Shown: piece by piece, positions 30,001 through 33,000 of the stretch
Numbering within the stretch: position 1 is the first letter of the stretch
Layout: each line of letters starts with the position of its first letter
Assembly (NCBI GenBank): GCA_043778225.1
Contig: JAYWGM010000101.1
Location: forward strand, 32,001-96,000
Length of the DNA: 64,000 bases
Reading direction: 5' to 3'
From: Deinococcales bacterium
GTDB taxonomy: Bacteria > Deinococcota > Deinococci > Deinococcales > JAAFIG01
Position numbers: made by a program

Positions 30001-33000
30001 TTGACCCCAAGCTGCTGCCAAACGGGTTGTACAGTTTCTCGAGCTTTGCAGGACTTGGTACAGAAACCCGCTTGGTCAGTCTCGAGAACGGTCTTGCTGT
30101 CGCGCTTGAGTTTTCGCAAACCCAAATTCCCAATAGCCCAGTCCCAAGCCCCTCAAGCCTGCTGCCAGATATTGGTATTGGTTTCTCGAGCGGGATTGGA
30201 TTAGAAGCTAAAGGCAACAATGGTGTTTTGGCATATCGTCTGGCTGGCGGTTACGACTTATTTGGTGTGGCTGGTTTTGGCGCGGATTTTTCCTTGCGTT
30301 TTGCGCCATTCCAAGGCTGGCAATTGACCGCCAACGGCAGCAGCAATCAGGCTCGAGGCTATGGCATTTTGGCTCGAGTGACATGGTCTGGGACTGGCGA
30401 AATTTTTACGCAAAGGGTCGGCGTGGTGTTTTCGCCGTTTATCACGCTCGATAATGGTCTACCAATTGTTTGGTTTGATTTTGGGCTGGGGGCTGGCTCG
30501 AGCGACGCTTGGGGCTACATCACCCAAAACTGGCAACTTTCTACCCGAATCAACAGCCAAGCCCAATACAGCCTTGGTCTAGGTCTGGCTGATTCTCTGG
30601 CAGGCGCGACCTTCGAGACCAGTTTGGGCGCTTCTGGCACATTGGGGGCTGCGCCAGTCTTGTCAGCACGTTTGGCGGCTCGAGCCTCCTTGCCTATCTT
30701 TTGGCGCTTTGGTGATGGTGTGCTGAGTTTTGAGCGCTTGACGTTCTACACTTCTGGTTCACTCTCGAGTCGAGAAGTGGCTTTTTGGTTGCAAATTCTG
30801 CTGGATGGCGTACTGAATTACAACACGGTTTTTACACTTGGACTCGAGCTTGGTTACTCGAGTCGCGGCGCATGGGTCTTTGGGCTTGTCTGGCGCTAAC
30901 GCTGCCCGATTTGTAAAATCCCAAGGCACATCTCATCCACTGTACCTTCGCCCCAAACGGTGTAGCGCGGTTTGACCCGAGTACCACCAATTTCGGGTTG
31001 AACTTCGGGTGCATTATCGTATTGGCAGGTCACCCGCACTTGGTCGCCGTTTTGTAGGTCTATCGGCTTCTCGAGCCAGTAACTGCTCTGCCAATGGAAA
31101 TCCCAACGTGGAATCTCGAGGATCGTTTGACTTTTGTTTTCGCGGACTAGCTCGAGTTTAATCGCTTGCCCAAGCAAGTGCATATGTCCAAGCATCCCGT
31201 AAATAGCCAGCTTGGCATCTGGGGCTAAACGCATCGGGAAAGTGCATTTGTTAATCACTTTTCCAGCCGAACCAGAAGTAAATTGCTCGAGGCTGCTGCC
31301 GCAGAAATTAACAAAAACTGGATTTTTGAACAATGCCGAAGTCCCATCGCCCATGCGGGAGGCTCGAGCATAGGCAGCATCGCGGTGGCATGGGTCGGCT
31401 GGGTCGGTTGGGTATGCGCCAAGGCATGGAATTTCGACTGGTGCAAGGATAATCCCCGAGTTCAGACGTTTGATTGGGGCTTCTTTGGGGGCAAAGTACA
31501 ATTCGGCTTTGCTTTGGTCAGAACCTTTACCACCAAGTAAATTGTAATGCAGTTGCAAAACCAGCACATCGCCGGGATTGATTTGTGTGCCAGTACCTTG
31601 GGGGTAATCAACGCTGCCCTGTCCGGGTGCCCAAACGCCAACAATGTTGGGCGTGCCAAGGTTATTGCCCGGTCCACCAAAACATGGGTAGCCAAGTCGT
31701 CCATCGGTGGCTTTGTTCTCGAGTTGTACTGCACTTTCGGCTTTGGTCTTGTCTATTTGAAAAATAACCACATGATGCACAATTTTTTTGTTGGCTGGCA
31801 CGATGTTATAGGCATTCATAAAACGCGATTCGGACAATTTAGGGTCAAAAATAAAGCAGCGATATTCGTCGGTCAGGCTGGCATCGGGCAGAAACTCCGA
31901 TTTTGGGCTTAAAACCATGTCGGGTTGGCGTTTTTGGCTGCTCGAGACGGCTTGGGTTGCCACAACTTTACCAAGCGGCGCACCCGCCCACGCCCAATTG
32001 GCAATAATTGCAATTTCATCGGGGCTAAGGCGTTTATCATGCCACAAGGCTGGGGTTGAACCACCCGCCGTGACTGGCGGCATATATTTACTCTGTACGG
32101 CTTTTTGGATGGTGCGTGCCATCGGGGTCACTTGGGCGGCGGTCTCGAGGGCAAAAGGTCCAATGTTGCCAGCGCTGTGGCAACCAACACAACTGCGATC
32201 CAAAATTGGTTTGACGTGTTCGTAATACTTAGGGATATACGACAACAACGGCGGCTGGGCTTGCTGCATCAGCACGGGCTTACCATGCCCGTGCTTAGAG
32301 CGGGTTTCGGATGCGCCATTGTTCTGGGTTGCACCCCAAACCACGCCGCTTGCAATCAGGGTTGCGACCAAGCCCAACGACCAAATTCTCGAGTTCATGC
32401 CCAAAGTATAGGGACTGGTTGTCAGGGCAATATGAAACCCGAGCCACAGTTGATGAGCTTTAGGCAGCTCGAGCCGCTTTGATAAAGGCTTTTATTTTGG
32501 CGGTGTCCTTGATTCCGGGGGCGCTTTCTACGCCACTGGCAACATCCACGCCCCACGGGCGGAGTTGCTGGACTGCCAAACCAACATTTTCTGGGGTTAA
32601 GCCGCCCGCCAGCAACCAACGCCGATTTTGTAGGCTCGAGGTGTCCATGCTTGCCCAATCAAAAACTGCTCCAGAACCAGCCTCGAGACCATCAAGAATC
32701 AGGGTTTGGGCTGGTGGAATAACCATTCCAGCTTGATACCCAACCGCTCGAATGACTGGAAAATGCGCCTCGAGACTTGCTACAAAATCATCAGTTTCGT
32801 GTCCGTGTAATTGCACCGCGCTGAGTTGCACCAGCCGAGCCGTGTGCAAAATTTCCTCGAGTGAAACATTTCTAAAAACGCCAATTCTCGAGACCAGCCC
32901 ACTGACTTGGCTCGAGATTCGCGCCGCGTTGACTGGCAAAATATAACGCTTAGAACTTGGTACAAAATTAAAAGCGATCGCATCCGCGCCGGCTTCTTCG

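Follow-up and report, generated by a model that had tools for sequence, protein, structure and literature searches.

Peptidylglycine alpha-hydroxylating monooxygenase (PHM) and dopamine beta-hydroxylase (DBH) are the textbook ascorbate-dependent enzymes of animals, where they make amidated hormones and noradrenaline, and there is still debate on how electrons get to, and between, their two distant coppers. The gene g03944 of a Deinococcales bacterium encodes a core of this type behind a domain with a haem c motif, which raises the question of what reduces the coppers of such an enzyme in a bacterium. We analysed the gene in a window of 64,000 nucleotides (the whole stretch of DNA under study; contig JAYWGM010000101.1, positions 32,001 to 96,000), together with its paralogues and relatives. 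The genome-wide survey's note had proposed that a c-type cytochrome is the dedicated redox partner of these enzymes, a claim that is supported by conservation, fold, gene linkage, persistence of the cytochrome after gene fission, a predicted complex and the presence of maturation genes. Our reading is that g03944 probably encodes an exported, non-coupled two-copper monooxygenase of the PHM/DBH fold with a built-in cytochrome c reductant, in which electrons would pass from haem c to CuH to CuM and the substrate would be hydrophobic. Cytochrome c most likely supplies electrons to the copper core in place of ascorbate (vitamin C).

The reading frame of g03944 is open and encodes 500 residues from an ATG, or 502 residues from a TTG at position 32404. 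Its features, in window coordinates, are as follows.

30896..32398, minus strand: whole gene g03944, 500 residues and stop codon; helix, tether, cytochrome c domain, linker and two-copper core
32321..32398, minus strand: N-terminal hydrophobic helix, residues 1-26 (from the sequence; helix 3-26 in the AlphaFold2 model)
31949..32242, minus strand: putative mono-haem cytochrome c domain, PccH-like, residues 53-150 (sub-threshold Pfam matches, PccH profile match, 46-sequence alignment, model of a g01107 homologue)
32177..32191, minus strand: CVGCH haem c attachment motif, C70, C73 and H74 (alignments; coordinates checked)
32075..32083, minus strand: Met-Pro-Pro, M106-P108, putative distal haem ligand loop (invariant; falls within the interface predicted for the split pair)
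31541..31870, minus strand: CuH domain, Pfam Cu2_monooxygen, residues 177-286, with the DxYxC motif (Pfam, alignment, profile)
31772-31777 and 31547-31549, minus strand: CuH ligands H208-H209 and H284, respectively (alignment)
31088..31114, minus strand: motif IPRWDFHWQ, residues 429-437 (conservation; predicted docking surface for the Met-Pro-Pro loop)
30923..31222, minus strand: CuM domain, Pfam Cu2_monoox_C, residues 393-492 (Pfam, alignment, profile)
31178-31186 and 30929-30931, minus strand: CuM ligands H405-M-H407 and M490, respectively (alignment)

Judging from its sequence, the N-terminal helix is probably a Sec-type signal peptide or a signal anchor. It contains neither a twin-arginine motif nor a lipobox Cys, and residues 17-45 of the AlphaFold2 model form a low-confidence stretch after it.

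Both halves of the copper core are recognised by Pfam in g03944, with 32.7 bits for Cu2_monooxygen (cut-off 30) and 45.4 bits for Cu2_monoox_C (cut-off 23). The survey had reported both families over their cut-offs, which is correct for g03944 and incorrect for its paralogue g03119, where Cu2_monooxygen scores 24.2 against the cut-off of 30. A phmmer search of the PDB returned DBH (4zel, E 2.1e-7) as the sole match, as had been reported, and the family profile matches DBH at 2.8e-9 and PHM at 3.7e-9 with the HH, H and HxH motifs aligned. The earlier AlphaFold2 model (mean pLDDT 83.7, pTM 0.81) was reproduced by ours (pLDDT 86.2, pTM 0.83), for which Foldseek lists DBH and PHM alone as top matches at E 1e-16 to 1e-12 (DBH 1.2e-16, PHM about 1e-15); the TM-scores by target of 0.57-0.71 for PHM refer to this predicted model. 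The animal enzymes (PHM 1PHM, 1OPM and 1SDW; DBH 4ZEL) are thus the top and only strong structural matches of g03944, with which they have in common the two-beta-sandwich core, the CuH and CuM ligands and the DxYxC and LQxHY motifs, at an identity of just 14-19%.

The six copper ligands H208, H209, H284, H405, H407 and M490 are invariant in all 36 aligned sequences, and so is the haem motif CxxCH; together with M106 this reproduces the full set of invariant residues listed by the survey (C70, C73, H74, M106 and the six ligands). The family comprises 21,369 cluster representatives, so that the survey's caveat that the fusion is widespread was right and understated. Among the best 150 of these representatives, all copper ligands are retained in 148, while the PHM motifs near CuH are retained at Y179 in 143 and at Q282 in 144; C70 and C73 are present in 143 and H74 in 144. 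Unlike PHM and DBH, g03944 is bacterial, exported and equipped with an N-terminal cytochrome c where the animal enzymes rely on soluble ascorbate. It lacks the dimerisation and PAL domains, and no DOMON domain was matched in it by Pfam at E up to 10. It has eight invariant core cysteines and an additional IPxWDFHWQ motif, the predicted docking site of the cytochrome, which finds only a poor match in PHM and DBH. Positions P430, D433, F434, W436 and Q437 of IPRWDFHWQ are invariant in the 36-sequence alignment, and the motif served as the pattern for a genome scan.

The N-terminal domain of g03944 stays below the Pfam cut-off of 27, with 16.7 bits for Cytochrome_CBB3 and 15.2 for Haem_bd, and the PccH model gives 13.3-14.1 against a cut-off of 24.4 on g01016, g03119 and g01107. 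In relatives, Pfam cytochrome c models do exceed their cut-offs (e.g. 34.1-38.2 bits). CxxCH and Met-Pro-Pro are invariant in 46 of 46 cytochrome domains drawn from Deinococcota, Actinomycetota, Chloroflexota, Myxococcota and one Pseudomonadota MAG, and M106 would be the axial (distal) ligand of the haem. The best match of the cytochrome sequence profile is PccH (4rlr, E 5.3e-4), and PccH also heads the VIA comparison made with the model of a g01107 homologue, at an rmsd of 2.1 A over 74 residues and a Z of 7.5, which lies under 8, the level below which a match may be merely a common arrangement. The top three VIA matches are all c-type cytochromes (PccH 7.5, FoxE 5.9, YhjA 4.7), and unrelated rows reach at most 3.3; Foldseek with the cytochrome domain model gave nothing at E 1e-3 or better (best 0.66). 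PccH of Geobacter sulfurreducens (4RLR, PF22297), the best match by both structure and sequence profile, is a free-standing protein of 129 residues with 19% identity to the cytochrome domain, and its Pfam model stays below the cut-off on every one of the five proteins of this genome studied here. Two Cytochrom_C_asm genes for cytochrome c maturation are encoded on another contig of the genome, C47 (110.3 and 93.8 bits).

The genome contains exactly four PF03712 matches, of which three cores are fused to a cytochrome (g03944, g01016 and g03119) and one, g01106, is split, with the 124-residue cytochrome gene g01107 directly upstream. All five genes lie where the survey had placed them, and its motif assignments were confirmed: CxxCH occurs at residues 70 of g03944, 94 of g01016, 73 of g03119 and 46 of g01107 and is absent from g01106, and VHH, GHMH and [DE]EMC are found in four of four cores. 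The reported identity of 39-49% between g01107 and the fused N-terminal domains was recovered as 39.1, 48.9 and 48.4% over 92-94 residues, with E-values below the earlier ones because blastp was run pairwise. Each fused paralogue has exactly ten cysteines, two in CxxCH and eight invariant in the core.

Structure prediction for g01106 (residues 30-414) with g01107 (27-124) and haem gave a complex score of 0.80 (runs 0.79, 0.80 and 0.81). In the calibration of the method, 116 of 157 solved complexes attained this mark, against 2 of 215 mismatched pairs; our prediction differs from the calibration in its use of our own alignments and a riding haem. The best of three controls scored 0.00; contacts agree between runs to at least 72%, and partner pLDDT is at least 89. 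On the cytochrome side the predicted interface consists of residues 48-57, the CxxCH loop, and 84-96, which include the MPP loop (84-88). On the side of g01106 it consists of residues 118-122, ending at the CuH ligand H122, of 205-208, adjoining the CuH ligand H203, and of 339-361, including IPKWDYHWQ. Conserved positions are enriched in it (13 of 33 versus 49 of 352, Fisher p 6e-4). The haem-binding loops are thus predicted to dock on the CuH histidines and the IPxWDFHWQ motif, and the score may reflect domain packing in the family instead of giving independent evidence, as the model could know the fused relatives.

The linkage between cytochrome and core is not confined to this genome. Every one of the 68 loci that could be evaluated, which come from five phyla, has a cytochrome, fused in 62 and encoded by the directly upstream ORF in six; twelve of the 80 genome loci, and L100, failed the motif or length filter and were left out of the tree and the counts. 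One locus, L029, looks like a frameshift and not a true split. Unfused genes from relatives have a same-strand upstream cytochrome gene in 12 of 12 cases, adjacent in 11, while their other neighbors vary. The split forms make up a single clade of Deinococcota (16 rows, SH-aLRT 96), and the other half of the wider tree (78 rows) is entirely cytochrome-fused, which argues that the split state is derived.

Cytochromes that serve copper enzymes are known from other systems. Cytochrome-c-tethered copper nitrite reductases have a c-type haem domain fused to the copper enzyme as a built-in electron donor; they differ from g03944 in their cupredoxin trimer fold and in reducing nitrite. In Cellvibrio japonicus, the small secreted c-type cytochrome domain of Cbp2D (CjX183) reduces LPMO copper outside the cytoplasm, and Cbp2D also carries a YceI-like quinone/polyisoprenoid-binding domain (PMC8981238). 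There, the LPMO is a mononuclear histidine-brace enzyme and its donor a protein apart from it, whereas here the enzyme is of the PHM type and the donor is either fused to it or the product of the neighboring gene. With our cytochrome domain model, Foldseek lists the structure of X183 (8q1v) only as a weak row (E 2.8).

The likeness to Cbp2D extends to domain composition. An N-terminal YceI-like domain (44.9-83.8 bits against a cut-off of 23.7) occurs in 19 of the 37 longest sequences among the best 150 representatives, so that YceI and then cytochrome c precede the copper core in 19 of 150, and all 19 fall in the same 72-row clade as the four paralogues of this genome (support 100). YceI-like domains are known polyisoprenoid/quinone binders. 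The Pfam search found no such domain (PF04264) in g03944, and none of the four stand-alone YceI genes of the genome lies beside a PHM-like gene. In the fusions, YceI might either belong to the electron chain or carry the substrate, as both fit the data.

The YceI fusions also bear on the most probable of the alternatives, namely that there is no organic substrate and the protein is a periplasmic detoxifying oxidase or peroxidase that uses respiratory electrons to reduce O2, H2O2, superoxide or lipid peroxyl radicals. Electron flow from haem to copper would still hold, the genes are mostly orphans, and one relative (P0159) is fused to peroxiredoxin-type AhpC/TSA and Redoxin domains. In addition, YceI-family lipocalins paired with a cytochrome b561 have been described as a system that detoxifies lipid peroxyl radicals (PMC9113575). 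We nevertheless consider this alternative unlikely, as the CuM site (His-His-Met) is complete and is conserved along with the motifs that PHM uses on the CuH side for substrate hydroxylation (148 of the 150 best representatives), and as the 1-6 diverged paralogues per genome fit differing substrates better than a single small oxidant.

Gene linkage gives no direction of flow, and many periplasmic dehydrogenases hand their electrons to a cytochrome c that is fused or adjacent; the copper core might accordingly oxidise a substrate and the cytochrome pass the electrons on to the respiratory chain. We regard such a reversal as improbable, since mononuclear His3 and His2Met sites belong to an O2-activating monooxygenase, which takes up two electrons per turnover, and we know of no PHM/DBH-fold enzyme that acts as a dehydrogenase with a cytochrome acceptor.

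The genomic neighborhoods were examined by clustering 1159 ORFs from 84 loci. The commonest neighbor family consists of generic ABC ATPases (20 loci), the remaining neighbors reflect lineage synteny (e.g. SDR, FtsH, PfkB, LexA and MoaE), and no family is common to different phyla. No constant adjacent partner gene, Ig-like or DUF2911, was found at these loci; DUF2911 has no match in this genome, which is 89% complete, and the same model has none in 14 control genomes. The split pair lies in a lipid-export operon with the order TetR, HAE3-MMPL RND, cytochrome c, PHM, LolA_like and DUF1302-like barrel. A P450 gene is encoded downstream in three of four loci orthologous to the split pair, one of which also has an alpha/beta hydrolase and an MFS pump. 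The neighbors of g03944 itself are trpF, a MacB-type ABC pair, PhoA, PhoX, holA and a PIN/HicB pair, and trpF is likewise the neighbor in one of two orthologues from the same genus. We considered and rejected a functional operon for g03944, as the fused form has no conserved functional neighbor, and suggestions about the substrate rest for this reason on relatives and on one paralogue.

These neighborhoods, and the active site, also bear on whether the protein is a bacterial peptide-amidating PHM that hydroxylates exported peptides at their C-terminal glycine, with ascorbate simply exchanged for the cytochrome. The fold and the copper sites are indeed those of PHM. In PHM, however, an Arg two residues before HxH holds the peptide carboxylate, and in the profile alignment PHM 'yRvHtH' is matched by 'vlGHmH' of the family, so that this Arg is missing from g03944 and its place is taken by Leu/Gly. 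Moreover, the 84 loci share no conserved neighboring gene for a lyase, a peptide precursor or a protease, and the recurring contexts are lipid or xenobiotic export and YceI, which makes peptide amidation very improbable. We give equally little credence to the idea that the N-terminal domain is haem-free, or only structural or regulatory, with a small-molecule reductant supplying the electrons: the sub-threshold Pfam scores on g03944 and the lack of a significant Foldseek match would suit it, but CxxCH and Met are invariant across five phyla, both profile and structure point to PccH, the domain persists after fission as a separate, always-linked gene, and the predicted interface is centred on the haem loops and CuH.

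In the reading that we favor, a monooxygenase reduced by its own cytochrome, g03944 would be Sec-exported to the periplasm or cell envelope, where its PccH-like domain would be covalently loaded with haem and tethered to the copper-loaded core by a flexible linker. The haem edge, formed by the CxxCH and Met-Pro-Pro loops, would dock on the CuH site and deliver single electrons from haem c to CuH and on to CuM, and reduced CuM would activate O2 and hydroxylate a C-H bond of the bound substrate, as PHM and DBH do. The haem would be re-reduced from the respiratory chain, the candidates being some soluble cytochrome and a quinol carrier of the YceI type. The fourth paralogue would use these two modules as separate subunits, encoded by adjacent genes. 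The substrate would not be peptidyl-glycine and is probably a hydrophobic small molecule or an isoprenoid-type envelope lipid.

A broader proposal, which we put forward as a possible but doubtful extension, is that these proteins form a very large class of envelope oxygenases that draw on the respiratory chain and not on ascorbate, in which electrons run from YceI-held quinol to haem c, CuH and CuM, and in which hydrophobic isoprenoid-type lipids or xenobiotics are hydroxylated in the periplasm before export by RND, LolA-like and DUF1302 proteins, the 'neuroendocrine' enzymes of animals being an ascorbate-adapted branch of a family that is mainly bacterial. If the assignments made here are correct, a protein-bound and spectroscopically visible one-electron donor would be present at CuH in more than 20,000 clusters, and electron delivery could be triggered and followed; the split pair of Deinococcota would be a natural two-subunit version suited to dissecting electron transfer. 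The family would represent a new type of periplasmic C-H oxygenase for bacterial metabolism and would change the picture of the origin of this enzyme family. The question is directly testable, as Sorangium cellulosum So ce56 and Nannocystis pusilla Na p29 are carriers available in culture.

Our literature search, whose coverage excluded subscription journals, returned no publication about bacterial enzymes that resemble PHM or DBH, or about their fusion to a cytochrome; passages in PMC6529398 and PMC12164859 deal with eukaryotic PHM-like sequences and DBH only. Scans for promoters and terminators gave counts at chance level. Among listed sequencing runs the stretch occurs in no RNA run and in only two DNA runs, both from one study, from which it may itself derive. 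The g03944 protein has no match in NCBIfam and no structure in the ESM Atlas, where the clusters nearest to it are labelled either 'monooxygenase family protein', with PF03712 in 92% of members, or 'cytochrome c domain-containing protein'.

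The genome-wide survey's note had described four paralogous genes with the catalytic core of peptidylglycine alpha-hydroxylating monooxygenase (PHM) and dopamine beta-hydroxylase (DBH), and had proposed a c-type cytochrome, fused to three of them and encoded beside the fourth, as their dedicated electron donor. Genome matches, alignments and a structural model confirm the fused and split genes, and the proposal is supported, as far as computation goes, by linkage, a clade of split pairs and a predicted docking. To that note we add this clade, the predicted docking of the haem on the copper site CuH with its motif, triple fusions with YceI, and a lipid-export and P450 context. 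A literature search found no published work on a cytochrome c-fused PHM-type enzyme of the kind encoded by g03944, the window gene under study, which is listed here with other features of the window.

25832-26490, (-) strand: adjoining genes for a PIN_3-domain protein (138 aa, 80.5 bits) and an 81-aa HicB/DUF6290-like protein, a probable toxin-antitoxin pair
28611-30899, (+) strand: 762-aa open reading frame, convergent and downstream of g03944, whose stop codon it overlaps by 4 bases
30896-32398, (-) strand: g03944, an open frame of 500 aa from ATG (502 aa from an alternative TTG start at 32404)
34954-35403, (-) strand: exported-looking 149-aa protein without a Pfam or NCBIfam match, heading the ABC-transporter/trpF/monooxygenase gene string
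35487-39416, divergent: two different alkaline phosphatases, PhoA-type (599 aa, 220.4 bits) and PhoX (660 aa, 567.4 bits), an arrangement that suggests a phosphate-scavenging locus

The assembly (4.03 Mb, 107 contigs, 89% complete) contains exactly four matches to Cu2_monoox_C. These are the four paralogues, all intact and where the survey had placed them: the fused g03944, g01016 and g03119, and the unfused core g01106, which starts 8 bases after the end of the 124-aa cytochrome gene g01107 upstream of it. The survey had put the Pfam copper models over their cut-offs, which is true of both in g03944 (Cu2_monooxygen, residues 177-286, 32.7 bits against 30; Cu2_monoox_C, residues 393-492, 45.4 bits against 23) and fails for the N-terminal model in g03119 (24.2 against 30). 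No NCBIfam model matched g03944, and its sole phmmer match in the PDB was human DBH (4zel, E 2.1e-7). The haem motif CxxCH lies at residues 70, 94 and 73 of g03944, g01016 and g03119 and at residue 46 of g01107, is absent from g01106, and accounts for two of the exactly ten cysteines of each fused protein, the other eight belonging to the core; in the split pair g01106 has these eight and g01107 the two of CxxCH. Over 92-94 residues g01107 is 39-49% identical to the three fused N-terminal domains. The N-terminus of g03944 is a hydrophobic helix lacking a twin-arginine motif, as would be expected for crossing by Sec and receipt of haem outside the cytoplasm; the genome encodes two Cytochrom_C_asm genes, on contig C47.

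We aligned 36 homologues, whose identity to g03944 is 33-79%, and found the copper ligands H208, H209, H284, H405, H407 and M490 and the eight core cysteines to be invariant. A profile built from this alignment matched DBH (E 2.8e-9) and PHM (1opm, 1phm and others; E 3.7e-9), with HH, the single H and HxH in register and PHM's DxYxC and LQxHY also aligning. The AlphaFold2 model of g03944 (pLDDT 86.2, pTM 0.83, low confidence only at residues 17-45) retrieved DBH (E 1.2e-16) and about 28 PHM entries (E 1e-15 to 1e-12; TM by target 0.57-0.71) from the PDB. All later matches were unrelated jelly-roll proteins, none better than E 1e-6, and no bacterial relative was seen among the solved structures in this search.

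Residues 59-110 of g03944 gave only sub-threshold cytochrome matches in Pfam (Cytochrome_CBB3 16.7, Haem_bd 15.2, cut-off 27 each); these models exceed their cut-offs in several relatives. Such domains, whether fused or encoded separately, were aligned from Deinococcota, Actinomycetota, Chloroflexota and Myxococcota plus a single Pseudomonadota MAG, 46 in all. Both cysteines and the histidine of CxxCH are invariant among them, as are a Met-Pro-Pro 32 residues on and one Trp. The family profile matched PccH of Geobacter (4rlr, E 5.3e-4) and a cytochrome c6 (E 0.04). Foldseek returned no significant match for the model of g01107 (pLDDT 86.9, pTM 0.73; best E 0.66), the listed rows being mostly class I cytochromes. 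A full VIA scan ranked PccH first, with a Z of 7.5 (rmsd 2.1 A, 74 residues) that is just under the tool's level below which a match may be a common arrangement, followed by FoxE (5.9) and YhjA (4.7), with unrelated rows at 3.3 or less. The match of this model to PccH is suggestive of a cytochrome c fold.

In order to assess linkage we scanned one genome per species, obtaining at least 600 pattern matches; of those listed we confirmed 590 and retained the best 80. An open frame could be evaluated in 68 of these 80 loci, and in 62 of the 68 an in-frame CxxCH precedes the CuM methionine by 330-480 residues; the scan patterns sit in the copper core, yet the ranking favours full-length matches. 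In each of the six remaining loci CxxCH...MPP is encoded by a frame of its own directly upstream; five of these are true gene pairs and one (L029) is probably a frameshift. We fetched 13 regions from relatives, 12 of them picked for a short open frame, and every one of the 12 unfused genes is preceded on the same strand by a g01107-like gene, directly adjacent in 11 cases; the other neighbors vary. The lone exception to direct adjacency, in relative G009, has a 237-aa open reading frame without a Pfam match (L092, 10755-11465, (-) strand) between the cytochrome c and monooxygenase genes. All 18 genomes of the same family have the copper domain (1-6 copies each). It occurs in one of 22 genomes that represent four other families of the order, and none of 14 control genomes has it.

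The split forms group into one clade (16 rows, SH-aLRT 96) when 83 cores are placed on a tree; all are from Deinococcota, including Thermaceae. This clade is nested in a group (support 100) of otherwise fused actinomycetotal genes; g03944, g01016 and g03119 fall in a separate Deinococcota clade (10 rows, support 97). In the half of a 150-row tree without genes from this genome (78 rows), every core is fused to the cytochrome. This makes the split state a derived one, due to one fission, after which the cytochrome and core genes stayed together through several genera.

We predicted the complex of g01106 (residues 30-414) and g01107 (27-124) with the haem riding along. The score was 0.80 (runs 0.79, 0.80 and 0.81), and the highest of three controls scored 0.00. 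In a calibration that, unlike our prediction, used neither custom alignments nor a ligand, 116 of 157 solved complexes attained this mark, as did 2 of 215 mismatched pairs. At least 72% of contacts are common to the runs, with partner pLDDT of at least 89. The predicted interface comprises residues 48-57 (the CxxCH loop) and 84-96 (the Met-Pro-Pro loop) of g01107, and residues 118-122 (ending at the CuH ligand H122), 176-180, 185, 205-208 (adjoining the CuH ligand H203) and 339-361 of g01106. The last stretch includes the motif IPKWDYHWQ, which is IPRWDFHWQ in g03944 (P430, D433, F434, W436 and Q437 invariant among the 36 sequences) and is poorly matched by PHM and DBH. Conserved columns are enriched at the interface (13/33 against 49/352, one-sided Fisher p 6e-4). 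Memory of a structure is unlikely, as no solved complex of this kind exists; the model may have seen fused relatives, and could possibly recall the family's domain packing. The haem loops of the cytochrome are predicted by the model to dock on CuH in the split pair, and in the model of fused g03944 the linker block 151-160 (pLDDT 68), flanked by two confident domains, fits a tether.

The 36-sequence profile retrieved 21,369 representatives from 1.84 billion clusters at E 1e-3 or better (11,678 at 1e-10 and 3,853 at 1e-30 or better). Among the best 150 of these, all six copper ligands are kept in 148, and CxxCH is followed 20-50 residues on by MP[PA] in 142. A Pfam scan of the 37 longest of the 150 showed an N-terminal YceI-like domain before cytochrome and core in 19 (44.9-83.8 bits, cut-off 23.7); others carry extra cytochrome or Haem_bd domains. 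Other redox inputs to this core are hinted at by two of these 37 long proteins: P0159 (1251 aa; AhpC-TSA/Redoxin, thioredoxin-like and cytochrome c domains) and P0156 (1064 aa; cytochrome c domains and EF-hands), in both of which the family profile matched several stretches and the Pfam copper models none. The 72-row clade (support 100) to which this genome's four genes belong contains all 19 YceI fusions as well. At least six changes of this label are required on the tree, and YceI therefore joined or left the subfamily repeatedly. The genome's four stand-alone YceI genes do not adjoin a PHM-like gene.

Three lines of evidence bear on the substrate. In PHM, the arginine of 'yRvHtH' holds the C-terminal carboxylate of the peptide; in the profile alignment this stretch corresponds to 'vlGHmH', so that the arginine is missing from the g03944 family. 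The split-pair locus reads TetR, HAE3/MMPL-type RND transporter (TIGR00921, 292.6 bits, under the cut-off of 351.9), cytochrome c, PHM-like, LolA_like and a 411-aa protein that the ESM Atlas groups with DUF1302 outer-membrane barrels (feature score 0.98; TM 0.84, 0.81). Of the four orthologous loci in relatives, all keep TetR, and two have the RND, LolA and barrel genes. In three a gene for a cytochrome P450 lies directly downstream, and one contains an alpha/beta hydrolase and an MFS pump. As for the YceI fusions, PMC8981238 names polyisoprenoids as ligands of YceI-like (X158) domains, with ubiquinone-8 in one structure. It also describes Cbp2D of Cellvibrio japonicus, in which such a domain occurs together with a pair of cytochrome domains of c type and whose X183 cytochrome reduces LPMO copper; of described systems it comes closest to our proposed electron path. 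Equally, YceI could be where quinol feeds the electron chain. Together, the split-pair context, the YceI fusions and the missing peptide-binding arginine suggest that the substrate is a hydrophobic small molecule or an isoprenoid-type lipid, a reading drawn from relatives and one paralogue.

The neighbors of g03944 itself are uninformative. Upstream on the same strand are trpF (55 bases from the TTG start), a MacB-type ABC pair and the 149-aa protein; of two same-genus orthologues, one also has trpF adjacent. PhoA, PhoX, holA, a MobA-like transferase and the PIN/HicB pair lie farther away, on either side. No neighbor family is common to different phyla among 84 loci. The DUF2911 model matched nothing in this genome, but it gave no match in any of the control genomes either. 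Judging by its sequence, the convergent 762-aa protein, which has no match in Pfam or NCBIfam, has a putative signal sequence, a middle part resembling a propeller and a C-terminal part rich in Gly and Ser that is a possible outer-membrane barrel. Just upstream of g01016 on the same strand (locus L001 on C31, 6944-8599) lie genes for a polyprenyl synthetase (224.7 bits), an isoprenoid link that may be due to chance, and a pyridoxamine-phosphate-oxidase-like protein; an ABC sugar-type transporter lies downstream. Apparently similar small PIN pairs occur near other paralogues (C32, 72191-72831; C86, 21092-21743).
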